Source: an uncultured Gammaproteobacteria bacterium (GTDB taxonomy: Bacteria; Pseudomonadota; Gammaproteobacteria; Pseudomonadales; JAHEGP01). Taken from it: 64,000 nucleotides of DNA. The stretch covers positions 66,147-130,146 of the forward strand of contig CAWEHR010000009.1 of NCBI GenBank assembly GCA_963808975.1, written 5' to 3'. Of this stretch, positions 1 to 8,672 are shown piece after piece. The notes below the pieces were generated by a model. It was given only the letters and a program-made list of their open reading frames with translations, was not told the DNA's origin and did not search any database. Made by a program: the position numbers and the translations under genes. How positions within the stretch are numbered: the stretch's first letter is position 1; each line of letters opens with the position of its first letter.

Positions 1-1674
1 GACGCCGTGGCAGCCAAGAACCAGGCGGAACAGATCACCATGGTGCTCTACCCCAACGACGCCAGCGAACAGGGCAAGGAACTGCGCCTGCGCCAGCAGT
101 ACTTCATGGCCTCGGCCAGCCTGCAGGACGTGCTGCAGCGCTGGGTGCGCTTCAACGGCCGCGACTTCGGCGAGTTCGCCGAGAAGAACGGTTTCCAGCT
201 CAACGACACCCACCCGACGGTCGCGGTGGCAGAGCTGATGCGGCTGCTGCTGGACGAGTACCTGCTGGAGTGGGACGAGGCCTGGGCGATAACGACTGCG
301 ACCATGGCCTATACCAACCATACACTGCTGCCGGAGGCGCTGGAGATGTGGTCGGTCAGCCTGTTCGGCGAATTGCTGCCGAGGCTGCTGGAGATCATCT
401 TCGAGATCAATGCCCGTTTCCTGGGTGAGGTTTCCGGCCGCTGGCCTGGCGATGTCGACCGGCAGCGGCGCATGTCGATCATCCAGGAGGGCCCGCAGCC
501 CCACGTGCGCATGGCCTTCCTCGGGATCGTCGGCAGTTATTCCGTCAATGGCGTTGCGGCGCTCCACACCCGCCTGCTGGAGGAGGGCCTGTTCCGGGAC
601 TTTTACGAGTTCTCCCCGGAAAAGTTCAACAACAAGACCAATGGCGTCACCCCGCGGCGCTGGCTGGCCCACTGCAACCCCGGGCTGAAAGCCCTGCTGG
701 ACGAAACCATCGGCGAGGCGTGGGTGCGCGACCTGGACCAGTTGGAGCGCCTGCAGGAATACGCCGGTGACAGCGCCTTCGCTCAGCGGTTCATGGCGGT
801 CAAGCGGGATAACAAGGCGCGCCTGGCCGACCTCGTGCGCAAGACCTGCAGCATCGACTTCGACACCGGCATGATTTTCGACGTGCAGGTCAAGCGGATC
901 CATGAGTACAAGCGTCAGTTGCTCAACGTCCTGCACGTCATCCACCTCTACGACCGGGTGGTGCGCGGGGATACCGACGGGCTTCAGCCCCGCTGTGTGC
1001 TGGTCGGCGGCAAGGCGGCGCCCGGGTACGTGATGGCCAAGCTGATCGTGAAACTGGTCAATAACGTGGCCAACGTGGTAAACCGCGACCGCCGGGCCAG
1101 GGACTGGCTGCGGGTGGCATTCATTCCCGACTACCGGGTCACGGTCATGGAAACCATCTGCCCCGGCACCGACCTCTCGGAGCAGATCTCCACCGCCGGC
1201 AAGGAGGCCTCCGGTACCGGCAACATGAAGTTCATGATGAACGGCGCGGTGACCATCGGTACCCTGGACGGCGCCAACATCGAGATCCGGGAGGCGGTGG
1301 GAGCCGACAACTTCTTCCTGTTCGGCCTGAACGCCGAGGAGGTCGAGGCCTCGCGGCAGCACTACGATCCCCAAGCCATCATCAGCGGTGACGAGGAGCT
1401 GTCCCGGGTGGTGAACCTGCTGGAGTGCGGACACTTCAGCATGCTCGAGGGCGGTATCTTCGAGCCCATCCTGGGCGCGATCCGCAGTAGCGGCGACCCC
1501 TGGATGACCGCCGCCGACTTTCGCAGTTACGTCGATGCCCAGCGGCGGGTCGACGCCACTTTCGCGGACGGCGGTGCCTGGGCGCAGATGAGCATCCTCA
1601 ACACTGCCTGCAGCGGCCGCTTCTCATCGGACCGCACCATCGCCCAATACCGGGACGAGATCTGGTTCAGGTAG
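1..1674 (+). CDS. glgP: alpha-glucan (glycogen/maltodextrin) phosphorylase, C-terminal ~555 aa; 5' end lies outside the window
   Basis: Frame is open from base 1. It carries the PLP-lysine region 'EASGTGNMKFMMNGAVTIGTLDGANIEI' and 'TNHTLLPEALE'. Stop TAG at 1672-1674. Confidence 0.95.
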   Translation, partial: DAVAAKNQAEQITMVLYPNDASEQGKELRLRQQYFMASASLQDVLQRWVRFNGRDFGEFAEKNGFQLNDTHPTVAVAELMRLLLDEYLLEWDEAWAITTATMAYTNHTLLPEALEMWSVSLFGELLPRLLEIIFEINARFLGEVSGRWPGDVDRQRRMSIIQEGPQPHVRMAFLGIVGSYSVNGVAALHTRLLEEGLFRDFYEFSPEKFNNKTNGVTPRRWLAHCNPGLKALLDETIGEAWVRDLDQLERLQEYAGDSAFAQRFMAVKRDNKARLADLVRKTCSIDFDTGMIFDVQVKRIHEYKRQLLNVLHVIHLYDRVVRGDTDGLQPRCVLVGGKAAPGYVMAKLIVKLVNNVANVVNRDRRARDWLRVAFIPDYRVTVMETICPGTDLSEQISTAGKEASGTGNMKFMMNGAVTIGTLDGANIEIREAVGADNFFLFGLNAEEVEASRQHYDPQAIISGDEELSRVVNLLECGHFSMLEGGIFEPILGAIRSSGDPWMTAADFRSYVDAQRRVDATFADGGAWAQMSILNTACSGRFSSDRTIAQYRDEIWFR

Positions 1675-1827
1675 CCCGGCGGACCAGCGCCGGGTCGCCG
1701 GTGTCGACCGCGGGCGGCGCCGGTTACCAGATGCACGCCCGCCTGACGGGCAACCCCGAACTCTCCTTGATCTGCACCAGGCTGAAAGGGTAACGCCAAG
1801 TTGACTCGGCCAAATTGGTAGAATCGG

Positions 1828-1908
1828 GTGATGGATACTGATGAGCGTCACCGATTCCCGCCCGATATCATCAGCTACGCTGTCTGGCTCTACTATCGCT
1901 TTAATCTC
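1828..1908 (+). pseudogene. IS6-family transposase N-terminal remnant (~27 codons)
   Basis: 'MMDTDERHRFPPDIISYAVWLYYRFNL' resembles the conserved N-terminus of IS6-family DDE transposases (RHRFP..II..AVWLY.RF.L). The similarity ends near 1908 and no DDE domain follows. Confidence 0.4.
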
Positions 1909-2169
1909 ATGCCCCAAGTGGGCTGCCAGGACGGCCACCCGGGACGAGGATACCTGCTGCACATGCTTACCAGGGCATGTGGGTTATGCCTGGCTAATTC
2001 AGGTGGCGTTGTGGATCCTGGCGGCCATGTAGTACCCGGATAATTTCAACCCTGCTGGCGGTCACCCGGTAACACAGGGTATGGCATTGCATAGGGAGGC
2101 TTCTGGTATGTGGCAGTTGCTTTCGCATGCTACCCAGGCCGACACCCCCAATCAGTACCTGCAATACAA

Positions 2170-2230
2170 TTGACTGTAATATTACAGTATGCTAGGCTGC
2201 ATTTAAGTACTGTAATATTACAGTATAAAT
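2170..2230 (+). promoter_or_regulatory. Promoter/operator region of the Xre-RES operon with two identical 18-bp sites
   Basis: ACTGTAATATTACAGTAT occurs at 2173-2190 and again at 2209-2226; the core ACTGTAATATTACAGT is a perfect palindrome. TTGACT at 2170-2175 and TATAAA at 2224-2229 overlap the sites. AGGAGG lies about 5 nt before ATG 2249. Confidence 0.55.
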
Positions 2231-2248
2231 ACTGCCCAGGAGGTAACC

Positions 2249-2650
2249 ATGATCGCTCAAGCCGAACAACTGCTGCAACGTGGTTCCAGTGTCACCCGTT
2301 CACTGCTGCCGGCGATTTTCAATATCTTCAGCCAGTGGCGGCTGACGGGTGCCCAGCAGATGACGCTATTGGGACTCAGTAATGAGAAGACCCTTTACAA
2401 CTGGAAGAGCCAGCCCGGGAAGGCCAAGCTGACGCGGGACCTGTTGGAAAGGGCCAGCTACATTTTGGGGATCTACAAGTCCCTGCAAATCCTGTTGCCC
2501 GATCAGCTGCTGGCCGACCAGTGGCTGGCCACACCGAACGACAACCCGCTGTTCAATGGCACGGCCCCTCTGGACCGGTTGCTGGCTGGTCAGGTGGTCG
2601 ACCTGGCCGTGGTCAGGGATTTTCTCGATGCCCAGCGGGGTGGCTGGTGA
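2249..2650 (+). CDS. Xre-type antitoxin with DUF2384 (MbcA/ParS-like) C-terminal domain
   Basis: 133 aa. C-terminal 'WLATPNDNPLFNGTAPLDRLLAGQVVDLAVVRDFLDAQRGG' fits the DUF2384 pattern. Its stop overlaps the start of the RES gene. Confidence 0.8.
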   Translation: MIAQAEQLLQRGSSVTRSLLPAIFNIFSQWRLTGAQQMTLLGLSNEKTLYNWKSQPGKAKLTRDLLERASYILGIYKSLQILLPDQLLADQWLATPNDNPLFNGTAPLDRLLAGQVVDLAVVRDFLDAQRGGW

Positions 2651-3339
2651 TCGCTATCGATACGCTACCCAGTAGTGAGGTCAATGAAACGGTCTATCGG
2701 GTCATACTGTCGCGCTACCCGCAGATCCACCTGTTTGAGCGCGTCTCCAATCCACAGGATTGGGATGTGCTCTACGCCGTCGAGTCGCTGACCAACCCCC
2801 GGCTGCGCGATCAAATCGGTGATATTCGCCTGGTGCCGACGGAAGACCGCGTCTATGGCGATGGCGCATCCTGGATCATGGCGGCCTTTACCCACCCGCC
2901 AGTCGATGGTCGAGGCGGTCGCTTCAACCGGGATTTTGGTATCTATTACTGCGCTGCCGATGAAGCGGTGGCCATCGCCGAATCGTCTTTCCACCGGGCG
3001 CGCTTTCTGCGGGAATCCCGAATCGACAAGACCACCCAGGAGGTGCGGGTCATCCGTGCGCAGCTGGGGCAGACAAACCTTCACGATGTCAGGCACCTGG
3101 CTGGACATGCCATTTACCATCCCGATGATTACGGTGAAGCCCAGCAGCTCGGTGATGCGTTACGAAAAGTCAAAAGCTTCGGTGTTCACTACCAAAGCGT
3201 GAGAGCGAAAGGGGAGTGTTACGGAGTGATGCGTGCCCGGGCGCTCTCCGATGCGGTCCACTGGCATTGTTTGCGCTACCACTATGAACTGGGATCCATC
3301 GTCAACGTGGAATCCCTCGATGGCGGTGGCAGGAGGTGA
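2647..3339 (+). CDS. RES-domain toxin (MbcT/ParT family)
   Basis: GTG 2647 overlaps the antitoxin TGA (GTGA). Conserved Arg/Glu/Ser contexts are present: 'GGRFNRDFGIYYCA', 'AVAIAESSF', 'GVHYQSVRAKG'. The track ORF 2521..3339 shares this frame, and I trimmed it to the coupled start. Confidence 0.85.
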   Translation: MIAIDTLPSSEVNETVYRVILSRYPQIHLFERVSNPQDWDVLYAVESLTNPRLRDQIGDIRLVPTEDRVYGDGASWIMAAFTHPPVDGRGGRFNRDFGIYYCAADEAVAIAESSFHRARFLRESRIDKTTQEVRVIRAQLGQTNLHDVRHLAGHAIYHPDDYGEAQQLGDALRKVKSFGVHYQSVRAKGECYGVMRARALSDAVHWHCLRYHYELGSIVNVESLDGGGRR

Positions 3340-3344
3340 TGGCA

Positions 3345-3938
3345 ATGTGTAAAGAGCTGCTTTGGATCTTCACCCAACTGCCAGACGCTTACATCGCTCT
3401 GGACACCGAAACCACCGGACTCCCTGACGAAAACGGCCCACCGGATATCGTGACACTTGGCATCACTGTGGTGAGAAATCGAGAGATAGCTGAATCGGTA
3501 GAGTTTAAAACACGACCGCAGAAACGCATTTTAGAAGAAGCGCAGTCGATACACGGCGTTACCAACGAACAGGCTGCAGGATTTGATTCCTTTGATTCCC
3601 AATGGAACCCGATTGCCGAATACCTGAAAGATCAGCTCATCGTGATTCACAACGCGAGTTTTGACTGGCCGATCCTGCTGGACCACGTCGCTCGATACGG
3701 AATGGCAATGCCAATAATACAAGGTGTTTTTTGCAGTCAGGCAGCAGCTATTCCCTGGGCGAATGTAATGAAACTTCCATGCAGTCACAGAGGCCCATCG
3801 CTGGATACCTTAACGGAAACGTTCGGCGTTGAAAATTTCAGAGCCAAGGACAGCGGGTTGCACGGGGCGGAGATAGATAGTCAGCAAACCGCTCGAGTGG
3901 TGGAAGCCATGCGGCAATCCGGAAGTGGTTCGATATGA
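3345..3938 (+). CDS. DEDDh 3'-5' exonuclease (DnaQ/RNase T-like), third gene of the RES operon
   Basis: ExoI 'ALDTETTGL', ExoII 'HNASFDWPIL', ExoIII 'HGAEIDSQQ'. AGGAGG (3331-3336) lies inside the RES 3' end, 8 nt before ATG 3345. Alternative starts are GTG 3336 and ATG 3339. Confidence 0.85.
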   Translation: MCKELLWIFTQLPDAYIALDTETTGLPDENGPPDIVTLGITVVRNREIAESVEFKTRPQKRILEEAQSIHGVTNEQAAGFDSFDSQWNPIAEYLKDQLIVIHNASFDWPILLDHVARYGMAMPIIQGVFCSQAAAIPWANVMKLPCSHRGPSLDTLTETFGVENFRAKDSGLHGAEIDSQQTARVVEAMRQSGSGSI

Positions 3939-4016
3939 AGTACGACCCTGTTCCGCATGAGCGGTATTTCTCTCTGGTGCTCAAACCCGACGCTGACTCT
4001 GACCAGCAAGACTCGC

Positions 4017-4202
4017 TCAATTTGGAGTGATCAGAAACGCACTGCTTGGCTGGAGGTGATCGCCTTCAGCGACATCCGTGCGTTGGTTGCCCAGTTGCGG
4101 ATCTTCGGCTAACCAGCCAAAGCGTTTTTCGAGTGCTTTCAGATAAGTATTATGTTTTCGTTTACCCCATTGGCGCTCTGTAAAGCGGCCGATGTTTTCA
4201 AA
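4017..4202 (-). pseudogene. ParE/RelE-family toxin remnant (no start codon, N-terminus missing)
   Basis: Open stretch 'FENIGRFTERQWGKRKHNTYLKALEKRFGWLAEDPQLGNQRTDVAEGDH..' matches the ParE pattern (WG....Y...L...F..LAE.P.LG..R.D). It is bounded upstream by TAA and has no Met. Confidence 0.45.
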
Positions 4203-4280
4203 TTATGCCGAGCCCCGGGGTTGACTCTGAATCTGGACATCGGGCTTCGTTATCCAGATCGCTGATGAGAGTGTGATGTT

Positions 4281-6803
4281 CTATGTCTTGCGTCCCATTT
4301 GGATCGCCGCCGCCTCGGCTTCGGCAGCATCGGCACTTTTGATGAGCGCTTCAGCCTCTTCGGTGAGTTCCTCGGCAAGCAAAGCCTTTGCGGCCCGGCG
4401 TTTCCTGGCCGCGAGCATGCTCAGATTTTCGATGCGCGCGAGCTGCTCTGCGGTTAACCGCGGCGGAGCAGACTGACCGTCAACGGGCAATAAAGGCCGC
4501 GTGGCCCGTTTATGGATGCTGATCATCCCGGCGCCGGCAAGCTGCTCGAGTGCGTGCCAGGTCGAGGTGTCGAGAACCTGTAGTGTCGGCCTGTCGCCTC
4601 GCCAGTCAGTTTCCTCGAATAGCGCCTCGACGCGGGCACGTTCGGCGACGTTATTCAGCACAGCCATGATCACCGGCGTCGGTGAGCCGGGCACCCAGGT
4701 CTCATCGCATTGGGTGAGATGTTCGCCCAGTACTGCTTTGGCTCGGGTCGCGAAATGCACAGCGGGATCTGCCGGTGGGGGCGTTGCGGCTGTGCTTTGC
4801 GTTGGCACGACCGCCATGACCTGCTCGAGACGCTTGAGGAATGCCTGGCGGCCGCTCCGGAGTGTCATTTTGGTAAGATCGCCCGTGCCATCGAGAACGC
4901 CCTGGGCGAGCTCCATTTTTTGTGACAGGGAGGCCAGCATACCGTGCTCGATCGTGCCCTCGGCAACCAGATTGACGACCGTAACCGGGTTCAGCTGGTT
5001 CTTGCGCCAAGCGCGCGCGATCCGCTGTTCGAGCTTGGCCGGGTTCCAGGGCAAGTCACAATTGATGACGACGCTGGCATTCTGCAGGTTGAGCCCGACG
5101 CCCCCCGAGTCGGTGCTGAGGAACAACCGGCAGTCTGGATCCTGACGGAAGGCGAGGATCTCTGCGCGACGTTGTTTCTGCGGGACTGAGCCGGTGTGCC
5201 AGGCATAACCGATGCGGTGTTTGTCCGCCCATTCCCGCACTCGATCGAGCATGCCGACCCACTCCGAAAAAACGATAACTTTGACGTCGCTGTCCTCCAG
5301 ACACTCTTCCAGAACTCGGGCAAGTTCGTCGAGTTTCGGGCAGTCGCGTGAGGGGTTGTCTTTCATGATCCCCGGTGAGTCGCAGATCATTCGCAGCATG
5401 TTCAGCAGAACCATCAGCAGGTCCTGCTCCTTCGAGGTAAGAGCGCGTCGTTTTGATCGCGCCATCAGGTCGGCAACCTGCCTGTTAAGTGCGGCATATT
5501 CATCGCGCATTGCCTGCGTGAGCTTGACCAGGTGTGTACGGTCCGTGCGGTCTGGGAGCTCGGTCTCGACATCCGCCTTGCGGCGGCGAAGCATTATTGG
5601 ACGTACGCTTTCACGCAGTTTATCGAGGTTCTTGTAACCCGCTGGACGGCCGCGCTCGTCCAGCTCGTAATACTCGCGATTGAAGCGGAACAGCGGACCC
5701 AGGATAGCAGGGTCGAGAAAATCGACAATCGAGCGCAATTCGTCGATCCGATTTTCAAGCGGCGTGCCGGTCAGCACGAAAGCGTAGCGGCTTTCCAGCC
5801 GCTTGACCGCCTGAGCGGTCTTGGTAGACCAGTTCTTGATCCGCTGGGCTTCATCGAGCACGACGATGTCCGGACGCAGCCGCGCATTGATGTCGAGACT
5901 GTCGGCAAGAATCTGTTCGTAGTTCGAAACTGTAAAGAACGGCGGATCCGGTTCGGCATAGATCCTTGCTCGCCGCGCGCGCCCACCGAATACCAGACGC
6001 AGCGGCAGGTCAGAGAATCGAAGGATCTGCTCCTCCCATTCAGTCTTTAACGAGGCGGGTGTAACAATCAGCACGCGTCGCGCCTTGCCGAGGTGGCGCA
6101 GGAGCGCGCAGGCTGCAATCGCCTGGATAGTTTTGCCGAGGCCCATCTCGTCGGCCAGCAGCGCGCGTTCGTTGAAGGCAAGGTGCAGCATACCTTCGCG
6201 TTGGTAGGGGAGTAGTGGGCTATGTGTAATCTGTTCCGGTTGCGTGCCATTGGCAACGCCTGCGGTATATTCGCGGCGGCTTATGATGCGGTCTTGCTCG
6301 CGGCCTCGCATCTCAATCCACGGCGGAACTTCATCTGAAATCCTAATAGATCGGCTACGCGAGGCCCTGAATTCCTCGAGCAGTTCTTCAGCACTCAGGC
6401 CATTTACCTGGAGTCCGCTGCTGTCGAAACGTGCGCGCAGTCGGGGCGGCAGTTTCCCGATGTTGCGCTCCACACGCAGGCGGCCAGCCGGAAAGTCCGG
6501 CACGATGTCCACTCGCTTCGACGAGATGCGCTCGGCGGTTTTGAACTCCTCGCGGTGGCGACGCGCAAGTTGGAGCAGGATCGACTCGATGTGCTTGCAG
6601 GTACCGAGTCCATTGATGCCAAAATCAGTGCAGCTACAGTAGAACTGCCGTGAAGGGAGATCGCGGATCTCGGCGCGATAGGTCATACCACTTGGCGAGC
6701 AGATCTCAAAATTCGAAAAAAATCGGATGTTTGGGCTCAAGATTGGTGATCCGGTGACGCTCTTCCCTCGCACGGAGTTTGCGCTTCGCAAGTTCATGCT
6801 CAT
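4281..6803 (-). CDS. SNF2-family helicase with N-terminal SWIM zinc finger (main frame; see frameshift note)
   Basis: SWIM 'CSCTDFGINGLGTCKHIESI'; motif I 'LADEMGLGKTIQAIA'; motif II 'DEAQRIKN'; helicase-C 'DSGGVGLNLQNASVVINCDLPWNPAKLEQRIARAWR'. The first ~29 codons of the track ORF look non-coding. Confidence 0.85.
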   Translation of the reverse strand: MSMNLRSANSVRGKSVTGSPILSPNIRFFSNFEICSPSGMTYRAEIRDLPSRQFYCSCTDFGINGLGTCKHIESILLQLARRHREEFKTAERISSKRVDIVPDFPAGRLRVERNIGKLPPRLRARFDSSGLQVNGLSAEELLEEFRASRSRSIRISDEVPPWIEMRGREQDRIISRREYTAGVANGTQPEQITHSPLLPYQREGMLHLAFNERALLADEMGLGKTIQAIAACALLRHLGKARRVLIVTPASLKTEWEEQILRFSDLPLRLVFGGRARRARIYAEPDPPFFTVSNYEQILADSLDINARLRPDIVVLDEAQRIKNWSTKTAQAVKRLESRYAFVLTGTPLENRIDELRSIVDFLDPAILGPLFRFNREYYELDERGRPAGYKNLDKLRESVRPIMLRRRKADVETELPDRTDRTHLVKLTQAMRDEYAALNRQVADLMARSKRRALTSKEQDLLMVLLNMLRMICDSPGIMKDNPSRDCPKLDELARVLEECLEDSDVKVIVFSEWVGMLDRVREWADKHRIGYAWHTGSVPQKQRRAEILAFRQDPDCRLFLSTDSGGVGLNLQNASVVINCDLPWNPAKLEQRIARAWRKNQLNPVTVVNLVAEGTIEHGMLASLSQKMELAQGVLDGTGDLTKMTLRSGRQAFLKRLEQVMAVVPTQSTAATPPPADPAVHFATRAKAVLGEHLTQCDETWVPGSPTPVIMAVLNNVAERARVEALFEETDWRGDRPTLQVLDTSTWHALEQLAGAGMISIHKRATRPLLPVDGQSAPPRLTAEQLARIENLSMLAARKRRAAKALLAEELTEEAEALIKSADAAEAEAAAIQMGRKT

Positions 6804-6909
6804 CGCTCGTGCGCCAATCAGTGGGGGGTGGCAAACCGGCGGCAGTTGCCCCGGATTTTATTGCACGTTTCTGTGCAGGCGTGTGTTTCTTCTTCCCTAC
6901 TTTGGCCAT
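6706..6909 (-). CDS. Probable authentic 5' segment of the SNF2 gene in another frame, separated by an A7/T7 homopolymer
   Basis: The 67-aa ORF 'MAKVGKKKHTPAQKR...RITNLEPKHPIFFEF*' ends at the run 6716-6722. Removing one base gives '...KHPIFSNFEICSPSGMTYRAEIRDL...', which reads straight into the SWIM region. Confidence 0.5.
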   Translation of the reverse strand: MAKVGKKKHTPAQKRAIKSGATAAGLPPPTDWRTSDEHELAKRKLRAREERHRITNLEPKHPIFFEF

Positions 6910-7877
6910 ATTGTTTGCCCTGTGGTGCGAATTTCGTCGTTACAGGCAACAAGCAAACGCAGCCGTATCAATCCGAGCTGACCGCCAGTCATGTTGGTTG
7001 CCTGCATTTCCGATCAATACCGCAGTGCCTTACCAAGATCAGCAGTGGCGTTCCAGTGAATTTACGATCATGGTGCTTTTCATATTATCCGCTTTCGGGT
7101 AAGGACTTAAGCATAAGAAAATAAGAAGGAAATTACGACTATTGCGAACAGTAGTCCCCATGGTGTTTATTTGCGTTTAGAACGGTAGAAGACGGCGATT
7201 CCACGAAAAGAAAATTTGTGACCGCCGGAGGCTATATGCCCCCACATGCGTGGGGAGCAGTCTAATTGTAGCTATATGGTAACTACTTACCCCCCTCCAT
7301 CAAAAAAGGGTTGACAGGTTTTTCGGCTGACCTTTCTCGTAAATCCGGGTGACAGCAAAATGTCCAGCTTATAGCGGCTCAGTTTCGGCATGAGCGCTAA
7401 TCTCCTGCCTTATGTATGTGCCGGTCCAACTACGCGGTTATTCGCCGCTGTTCTGCATTAGCTGCCTGACGCCCCAATTTTTCTGATCGCCTGAACCGCA
7501 ACCAATCGTGTCGTCCGAGCGCAGCCCGACACGCCCTGGGCGCGGGCATCGGCGGTGTCGGTGCGTCCGGCGGTCCAGGCTGAGGTTGGGTTGATCCATG
7601 TCTTAGCTCATGGTCAATTAACCCTAGAAACCCCAGTTGGGCACGGAATTATCGGGAAGTCCCAGCTCGCCAGAATGCCCTATCAGAGGCGATGCATCAC
7701 TCGCCGGAATTTATTCGATGCCGGGACCGTCAGTGTTTACCTATGGCCCCAGGAAGCCCGGGCCCAGATGATGTCCAAACGAAATTTGCAATTGGGCCCA
7801 AAAAAGCCCGTGAACCCGCGTAAGATTGATGCGCGGCTTCGCTGGGTTTGCCGTTACATGATGTTACTATTGTGGAG

Positions 7878-8423
7878 TCAGGAAGCCGATGCTGGTTGTT
7901 GGTTTGCTCCTACCAGACATACGACCATGCGGCAGGGCATTTTGCTTTTGTTATGCCACGCGTGTCTCGTGCCATTTTGTATCAGTGTATCACCGGCAGA
8001 CAGATGTACTTCTTGTCCATCGCCCAGTTCCAGCGAGATATCGCCGGCAATGACGTAAATAAAGTCGGTCGTAGCTGATGCGTGCATTCTCGGATTATCG
8101 GGATCTTGCGTCGCCACTAAGCCTGGCCATATTGTTTCCAGTTCAGAGCGCACAGCTTCCGGATCGACGTAAGTAAGCTTGGTACTTGATTCAGGTGCAA
8201 AAGTGACCACGGTAAACCTGAAGCCCCCCAGCGGTGGGAAATAGTTTGCAAAAGGCGCCATTGACCCGTCGTTAGGCAAGGTTGGCGGCCCGTCGGCTCC
8301 CCATATCGTATGCTGTTCAAAGCCCGGGAACGGCGCAGCCGTCTCACCATCAACTGTCGAATCACTCGCGATCGTGGTTTTTCTATCCTTCGTGTGGCCG
8401 GTGACGACCCGCCTAATCCCCAT
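7878..8423 (-). CDS. cupin-domain protein
   Basis: 181 aa. C-terminal cupin barrel 'DFIYVIAGDISLELGDGQEVHLSAGDTLIQNGTRHAWHN'. Confidence 0.75.
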   Translation of the reverse strand: MGIRRVVTGHTKDRKTTIASDSTVDGETAAPFPGFEQHTIWGADGPPTLPNDGSMAPFANYFPPLGGFRFTVVTFAPESSTKLTYVDPEAVRSELETIWPGLVATQDPDNPRMHASATTDFIYVIAGDISLELGDGQEVHLSAGDTLIQNGTRHAWHNKSKMPCRMVVCLVGANQQPASAS

Positions 8424-8672
8424 GGCTAACGCTCCTGATCTGTCGAATGTGTTGCCAAAAAGCCTCCATCAGCGGTGCCGCTCAGCCGATTCCGGGCTGA
8501 CAGCAACCGCCTTGAACCCAGCACCTTGCGGTGAGAAATGGCAGACCTCCAGGTTACCACCCGCTACCGCCGGCAGAGCTGCAGCAGGAGACAAAATGAG
8601 GGCAGGCAGAATCGATCCGCGCCTCATGACCTGCCTATGCATAATAAAGTTGACCGGCTTCAGGAGTATCGA

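Follow-up and report, generated by a model that had tools for sequence, protein, structure and literature searches.

An Xre-RES toxin-antitoxin operon with a third gene for a DEDDh exonuclease, at the edge of a defence hotspot in marine conjugative elements

We analysed a 64-kb stretch of DNA (64,000 nucleotides, hereafter the window) from contig CAWEHR010000009.1 of an uncultured gammaproteobacterium, in which a compact operon at positions 2170-3938 consists of a promoter and two palindromic operators followed by three genes, xre, res and exo. They encode a putative antitoxin (Xre), a RES-domain protein (RES) and a stand-alone exonuclease (Exo). A preliminary description of this DNA had read them as an Xre-RES-DEDDh operon in which the exonuclease is a third component of a toxin-antitoxin (TA) system. 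Its coordinates for xre, res, the AGGAGG motif and exo all proved correct when checked directly against the sequence, and the core of its claim is supported by synteny, by the joint presence and absence of the genes and by purifying selection. The features are collected in Table 1.

Table 1. Positions in the window of the operon and of neighbouring features.
Feature	Position	Strand	Description
Promoter	2170-2198	+	-35 TTGACT (2170-2175), 17-nt spacer, -10 TAGGCT (2193-2198); assigned from conservation
Operator O1	2173-2188		Perfect palindrome ACTGTAATATTACAGT; overlaps -35 and spacer
Operator O2	2209-2224		Second copy of ACTGTAATATTACAGT, 36 bp from O1
xre	2249-2650	+	Predicted antitoxin/repressor, 133 aa; AGGAGG at 2238-2243, ATG 2249, TGA 2648-2650
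res	2647-3339	+	RES-domain toxin (predicted), 230 aa; GTG start 2647, TGA 3337-3339
Shine-Dalgarno of exo	3331-3336	+	AGGAGG within the final codons of res, visible directly in the sequence
exo	3345-3938	+	Stand-alone DnaQ-like DEDDh 3'-5' exonuclease (predicted), 197 aa; ATG 3345, TGA 3936-3938
Cargo-gene remnant	3934-4054	+	5' end of a gene for a 1443-aa P-loop protein, with a 2-bp deletion (frameshift), then truncated; aligns to open reading frames of loci L009 and L011
IS6-family transposase fragment	1785-1909	+	blastn match to a Halioglobus plasmid; annotated as IS6-family transposase in a Rhodovastum plasmid
SNF2-family helicase gene	4281-6803	-	840 aa, convergent with the trio; N-terminal Cys/His motif read as a putative SWIM zinc finger

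All three proteins matched the Pfam families that had been proposed for them. Xre matches PF20432 (9e-12) and PF09722, the former DUF2384 (2e-9), RES matches PF08808 (3e-27), and Exo matches PF00929, RNase_T (5e-15). Across 13 sequences with identity as low as 38%, residues R91, E111 and S183 of RES never vary. With a RES domain carrying this R/E/S set, an antitoxin that combines a helix-turn-helix (HTH) with PF09722, and overlapping genes behind palindromic operators, the pair has the features of a type II RES-Xre system. It departs from the two-gene architecture of such systems by its third coupled gene, found in 77 of 78 loci (below).

A single-sequence search of the PDB with RES gave no match, and a profile search returned NatT (8QNL/8QNQ, 1.5e-6) as the only solved relative. 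The best plasmid matches, from Sphingobium, had prompted a ParT-like assignment, which was dropped since the profile search gave NatT only and not ParT, MbcT or the P. putida RES. Plasmid homologues of RES reach 38-45% identity at most, and on the three plasmids inspected (Sphingobium p1, Novosphingobium pNL2 and a Tenderia plasmid) the relatives, at 38-42% identity, form plain two-gene Xre-RES pairs. Homologue searches at E ≤ 0.001 gave 786 proteins for Exo and 718 for RES; among 1063 relatives of RES in a library clustered at 50% identity, one full-length representative was more than 50% identical to the window protein. The exonuclease is therefore a clade-specific accretion, in a clade that is narrow in sequence space and abundant in marine data.

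The exonuclease motifs of Exo (Exo I LDTETTG, Exo II HNASFD and Exo III HGAEID) are intact, as first described: the five DEDDh residues line up with their counterparts in E. coli epsilon (DnaQ) and in the Thermotoga PolC exonuclease domain, and they are at least 97% conserved in 71 Exo homologues. Among proteins of solved structure, the closest in sequence, at ~1e-10, are the exonuclease domain of PolC (2p1j) and epsilon of E. coli (1j53, 2gui). When a structure model of Exo was searched with Foldseek, the top matches were epsilon, the PolC exonuclease domain, ExoX, the N-terminal exonuclease domain of DinG and Cas2-DnaQ, with TREX also close. By sequence and modelled fold, Exo is closest to DNA-directed DEDDh enzymes. 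It falls outside the dnaQ family of Pol III epsilon subunits, scoring 70.9 bits on NCBIfam TIGR01406 against a cut-off of 222.7; the protein is the catalytic domain alone, ending 7 residues past it, and has no epsilon-like C-terminal alpha/clamp-binding segment. In PADLOC, Exo matches a generic CRISPR-associated DEDDh model (1e-23) and the N-terminal domain of the candidate PDC-S48 only. A phage origin was considered and rejected, as 50,697 phage records held no relative above 31% identity and IMG/VR held none.

The three genes are tightly joined. The GTG start of res lies over the xre stop as a GTGA overlap, which is kept in 65 of 76 loci, and the AGGAGG of exo lies within res; a res-exo gap of 4-5 nt with the Shine-Dalgarno sequence inside res was found in 57/76 loci. 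The region of this site, CAGGAGGTGA, is kept in most loci in an alignment of related loci, as is the exo start ATG 3345. A second in-frame candidate start, ATG 3339, overlaps the res stop in the window and is not conserved among the relatives. No terminator was found in the 5-nt gap between res and exo, and a promoter scan gave two promoter-like sites, against 1.7 expected, with none at the res-exo junction. Nothing better than chance therefore separates exo from the genes before it, a point on which the preliminary description could have failed. In the most divergent trio members the res/exo junction is itself an ATGA overlap. Both junctions are suited to translational coupling.

To survey the neighbourhoods of related exonucleases, we ran a scan seeded with Exo using one genome per species, which gave 80 loci, 78 of them with upstream DNA. 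Carriers are Gammaproteobacteria in genera that include Porticoccus, Haliea, Halioglobus, Nitrincola, Alcanivorax, Oceanobacter, Sedimenticola, Spongiibacter and Thiogranum; among cultured ones are Haliea salexigens DSM 19537, Porticoccus litoralis DSM 25064, Alcanivorax nanhaiticus 19-m-6, Oceanobacter antarcticus and Nitrincola sp. Xre, RES and Exo occur in the same order in 77 of the 78 loci, so the exonuclease is regularly syntenic with RES, as the preliminary description required. Identity to the window is 91-97% for Xre, 80-88% for RES and 70-83% for Exo in most loci, falling to 57%, 44% and 50%, respectively, in the most divergent members. The sole exception, L063, is without Xre-RES, and its exonuclease carries an in-frame stop at about codon 7. 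Two small open reading frames follow this interrupted gene (L063, 5716-6872).

In nearly all loci, DNA homology to the window begins sharply at 2164-2170 and ends at ~3880-3925. Because these boundaries are sharp and shared, the inherited unit is the promoter plus three genes, ~1.75 kb in all, set between unrelated flanks. An integron cassette or other repeat-bounded mobile cassette was rejected as an explanation, as the unit lacks flanking repeats, the operator motif is confined to the promoter, and the homology simply ends at the promoter and at the 3' end of exo. Pairwise divergences, computed for each of the three proteins over 71 complete trios, are correlated at r = 0.89-0.97. Median dN/dS (the ratio of nonsynonymous to synonymous divergence) is 0.06 for Xre, 0.08 for RES and 0.13 for Exo, at a synonymous divergence (dS) of 0.7-1.2, and since dN/dS is low at such dS, the high protein identity reflects constraint and not recent spread. 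That the operon is a chance juxtaposition or an annotation artefact, an ordinary two-gene TA pair beside an unrelated exonuclease, has in its favour only the prior expectation that a RES-Xre locus usually consists of two genes; against the synteny, the sharp homology boundaries, the conserved junctions and the joint presence or absence of RES and Exo reported below, we regard it as virtually excluded.

In an alignment of ~75 loci, TTGACT and TAGGCT are the only conserved hexamers upstream of xre. A consensus scan missed this promoter, whose -10 element matches at 3/6 positions, and its assignment is an inference from conservation. The preliminary description had made no mention of it. The motif CTGTA-N4-TACAG occurs twice in the 64-kb window, against zero expected, both times at the xre promoter, and it recurs at the same two promoter positions in 72 related loci, with a centre-to-centre spacing of 36 bp in nearly all. 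The half-sites are invariant across loci while the central four nucleotides vary, and in divergent Xre lineages the half-sites are altered correspondingly. We read the palindromes, by this signature of half-sites changing with Xre, as the probable operators of the antitoxin itself. A LexA/SOS box was ruled out, as the palindrome is CTG-N8-CAG and not CTG-N10-CAG and its half-sites vary in step with divergent Xre. The arrangement matches the autorepression of Xre-RES in P. putida, which acts through a palindromic repeat in the promoter (PMC12204516).

In ~30 of the 80 genome loci the trio lies between two sets of conjugation genes, with TraD (TIGR03754, 1078 bits) and a TIGR03747 membrane protein upstream, and RAQPRD (TIGR01690), TIGR03745 and TIGR03746 downstream. 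This gene order identifies the setting as the transfer region of an ICEclc/PFGI-1-type integrative and conjugative element (ICE). In about eight other loci the trio directly follows guaB-guaA (L001, L002, L003, L016, L029, L035, L040 and L065), and the settings of the rest are varied. For a sample that did not start from Exo, we scanned metagenomes with the TIGR03747 protein and read the genes downstream. Where TIGR03747 was at least 83% identical to the query, 31 of the 35 loci with enough downstream DNA had the full trio; at 69-82% identity it was present in 5 of 8, and at 68% or below in 0 of 12, giving 36 of 55 overall. In the closest group, the start lies 77-114 nt past the TIGR03747 stop codon in all but one of the 31 trios. 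RES and Exo were both present in 36 of the ICE-seeded loci and both absent in 42. The identity of the trio to the window drops as the TIGR03747 protein diverges from the query, which points to long co-inheritance with the ICE lineage. The trio is nearly core in one ICEclc/PFGI-1-type lineage, where it sits at the upstream edge of the traD-RAQPRD hotspot.

Four ICEs in the closest group (L098, L102, L104 and L127) carry an orphan Xre, 70-75% identical, without RES and without Exo. In L102, which was read in detail, the orphan Xre (7652-8071) stands behind the same two operators. Such an orphan may act as an anti-addiction antitoxin; if RES is toxic and Xre its antidote, an antitoxin would be expected to outlast its toxin in this way. 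That Exo was lost with RES, and not kept with Xre, argues that the value of Exo depends on RES. Between TIGR03747 and the orphan Xre, L102 also has a divergent GNAT/RHH-type TA pair.

One alternative is that Exo serves the conjugative element, for example by helping to process or replicate the transferred DNA or by opposing the defences of the recipient, and that it shares only the promoter of the TA pair, with no functional tie to RES-Xre. It would fit with a trio that is nearly core in one ICE lineage and diverges together with the ICE backbone, with the DnaQ-like exonucleases common on plasmids in ParB/DnaN/RecT contexts without RES (distant homologues of Exo, at ~29% identity, among them), and with loci in which RES is truncated and Exo intact. 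However, an intact Exo without RES-Xre was found in 0/78 genome loci (there is the one pseudogene), the ICEs that lost RES also lost Exo and kept Xre, the trio moves as a block outside any type IV secretion system (T4SS) context in ~50 of 80 loci, and the coupling of res to exo is kept, to the point of the ATGA overlap, in the most divergent members. We consider a hitchhiking Exo of this kind rather unlikely.

Some genomes hold several copies of the trio. A Haliea metagenome-assembled genome (MAG) has copies at L041, L046, L051 and L054, and a Halioglobus MAG at L023 and L027, on different contigs. Two to four copies per genome imply multiple related elements per cell, and cross-talk between their near-identical Xre proteins is possible.

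The region after the trio varies between loci and is mostly made up of phage-defence systems. The first large downstream protein had a strong PADLOC match in 15 of 26 sampled loci and a weaker one in 3 more. Single-protein matches were to MkoA (Mokosh), Tmn, Avs2, Avs3a, Avs4-like, SngA, PDC-S06 and Cas9, and components of multi-gene systems were GajA and GajB (Gabija), QatA, CBASS E1-E2/JAB, OLD/AriA-like, LmuB (Lamassu), HerA and DndF. The Cas9 homologue (8e-106 in PADLOC) is the first large gene after the trio in one MAG (L021, 6496-9591), so the hotspot can hold type II CRISPR-Cas as cargo. As a control we took, in 10 loci outside ICEs, the large genes closest to the trio on its upstream side, which yielded a single clear defence gene (JetA) plus a helicase IV of ambiguous status, the others being housekeeping genes, a transposase or unknowns; the downstream excess has a Fisher p = 0.02. 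The traD-RAQPRD interval corresponds to GI-Hotspot 8 of Pseudomonas islands, which is enriched in defence systems (PMC12629846); the section consulted and term searches of that article gave neither RES-Xre nor an exonuclease at the edge of this hotspot.

In L009 and L011, the gene after the trio (5591-9922) encodes the 1443-aa P-loop (GAGKT) protein, and its ATG overlaps the exo stop as ATGA; a cargo gene of L020 also overlaps the exo stop. For the 1443-aa protein, neither Pfam nor PADLOC has a matching family, and its gene is possibly a defence gene not yet catalogued. Such overlaps would suit the alternative that the trio is the regulatory head of a cargo bay, in which a stress-responsive, Xre-controlled promoter reads through into promoter-poor defence genes and RES and Exo are accessory. 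In 49 of 74 loci, among them all those in a T4SS context, the gene after the trio reads in the same direction; the median gap to it is 165 nt, and terminator-like hairpins follow the trio in only 7/74. These features favour read-through. However, there are no operator copies near the cargo, the downstream gene is convergent in 25/74 loci, a toxin with a conserved active site and a nuclease held at dN/dS ~0.1 are needless for a regulator, and the window copy persists intact without cargo. A mainly regulatory role for the trio seems unlikely to us.

The surroundings of the window copy differ from this picture. The TraD/TIGR03747 and RAQPRD/TIGR03745/TIGR03746 flanks of the ICE hotspot were not found in the window; upstream of the trio are a glycogen phosphorylase gene (glgP) and the IS6-family fragment, which marks where the original upstream flank was lost. 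The stretch after exo, first taken for TA debris, is instead the truncated and frameshifted 5' end of the 1443-aa P-loop gene. The neighbouring SNF2 helicase has PADLOC matches (DpdE, ZorD, BrxH and DrmD) that span only the generic helicase core, and for that reason we did not count it as a defence gene. The defence-island context of the preliminary description is accordingly weak in the window itself and strong in the related loci. Window positions 4040-4300 gave no plasmid match, and an Rfam search of positions 1-8000 gave no RNA family. Further along, a 1600-aa open reading frame without a Pfam match (8673-13475, minus strand) adjoins a small cupin gene (7878-8423). Judging from these flanks, the window copy is an intact orphan trio in an eroded island outside any ICE.

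We propose that the trio is a self-contained, autoregulated operon in which a type II RES-Xre pair is obligately joined with a stand-alone DnaQ-like 3'-5' exonuclease. Xre dimers, alone or in an Xre-RES complex, would bind O1 and O2 and repress the operon, while the C-terminal domain of Xre would block the RES active site. If Xre were lost or titrated, RES would consume NAD+ by acting as a phosphorylase/NADase or else as an ADP-ribosyltransferase (ART); loss of the element, stress and infection are possible triggers of its release. Exo, presumably made in fixed proportion to RES, would act on free DNA 3' ends as a nucleic-acid-directed arm, being either a second effector directed at DNA that is replicating or invading, or a link from DNA ends to toxin release. 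The net outcome would be addiction or abortive growth arrest that stabilises the conjugative element together with its defence cargo. Taken as a whole, mechanism included, we give this proposal about an even chance of being right.

Several observations weigh against it. RES is truncated and Exo intact in L006 and L070, and Exo is truncated and RES intact in at least two loci, L044 and L069; if real, these one-gene truncations would mean that neither res nor exo strictly needs the other for viability, and assembly errors may account for some of them. That genes so closely linked are inherited together is no proof of joint function. No RES-exonuclease fusion (a Rosetta stone) was found among the 150 nearest RES representatives. 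The Exo structure model is of medium confidence (predicted local distance difference test score, pLDDT, of 70), and no PADLOC model matches Xre or RES. Finally, according to PMC11535050, no RES TA system has been implicated in immunity, and NatT gave no phage phenotype.

The chemistry of RES could also be read differently. This RES clade might ADP-ribosylate nucleic-acid termini, as KptA/Tpt1 do, and Exo might excise the modified ends as a DarG-like second antidote. RES and KptA have been placed together among the phosphate-attacking enzymes of the ART superfamily (PMC9503650); the present RES clade stands far from MbcT, from ParT and from the P. putida RES, none of which the PDB profile search found; and the catalytic residues of Exo are strictly conserved. 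However, the characterised RES toxins MbcT and NatT act on NAD(P)+, and there are the loci in which Exo is truncated and RES intact. ParT acts on a protein, Prs, which likewise counts against an activity on nucleic-acid ends. An enzymatic counter-activity of Exo is, in our judgement, quite improbable.

A bolder form of the proposed RES-Xre-Exo partnership would make the trio the first RES-family system known to work as a three-part immune or addiction device, in which engagement by Exo of free 3' ends of foreign DNA, invading or replicating, is coupled to the release of the NAD+-consuming RES from Xre, and which serves as a conserved gatekeeper that protects, and perhaps co-regulates, the exchangeable defence cargo of a widespread family of marine conjugative elements. 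We offer this only tentatively, as a doubtful possibility.

RES-Xre systems are among the largest TA families, and their physiological role has been described as unresolved (PMC11535050). The present clade offers a handle on that role, as its toxin is invariably joined to a nuclease, carried by ICEs and placed at the mouth of a defence hotspot. If Exo is a true working partner, the trio would be a new three-component architecture linking NAD+ chemistry with DNA-end processing, and the 1.75-kb unit would be a conserved marker for defence cargo in marine Gammaproteobacteria, including uncatalogued systems such as the 1443-aa P-loop protein. In full-text literature searches, no paper turned up that links a RES domain to DEDDh or describes a RES-Xre-exonuclease trio. 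The RES-Xre core family and the ICE hotspot are already known; the obligate third gene and the fixed position at the hotspot edge are new.

The trio resembles the known RES-Xre systems (MbcTA, ParST, P. putida Xre-RES, NatR-NatT, SlvTA and KnaAT) in having the antitoxin gene first, an HTH plus PF09722 antitoxin, the R/E/S residues of RES, overlapping genes, palindromic operators in its own promoter and carriage on mobile elements. Unlike them, it always comes with a third coupled gene for a DEDDh exonuclease and consistently lies at a defence-cargo hotspot, and its RES clade is distant from the characterised toxins, of which only NatT is reached by profile. A TA operon with a third, co-transcribed downstream enzyme gene that is neither toxin nor canonical antitoxin has a precedent in mazE-mazF-mazG of E. 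coli. MazG is a nucleotide pyrophosphohydrolase and not a nuclease, and the maz toxin family is unrelated to RES. With DnaQ epsilon, the PolC exonuclease domain, ExoX and Cas2-DnaQ, Exo shares the DEDDh fold and all five catalytic residues; it differs from them as a 197-aa catalytic domain far below the dnaQ cut-off that is encoded within a toxin operon.

By analogy only, DarTG and NADase defence systems that sense nucleic acids, such as SIR2-HerA and short prokaryotic Argonaute (pAgo)-SIR2/TIR, also pair a NAD+-consuming or ADP-ribosylating toxicity with a partner that acts on nucleic acids. Their partners are not homologous to those of the trio. GI-Hotspot 8 of PAGI-2 and PAGI-3 as well as LESGI-3 (PMC12629846) occupies the same backbone interval and holds variable defence cargo such as CBASS, Gabija, Lamassu and restriction-modification systems. 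In the marine ICE lineage, by contrast with the hotspot as portrayed there, the trio is the nearly fixed first occupant of this interval.

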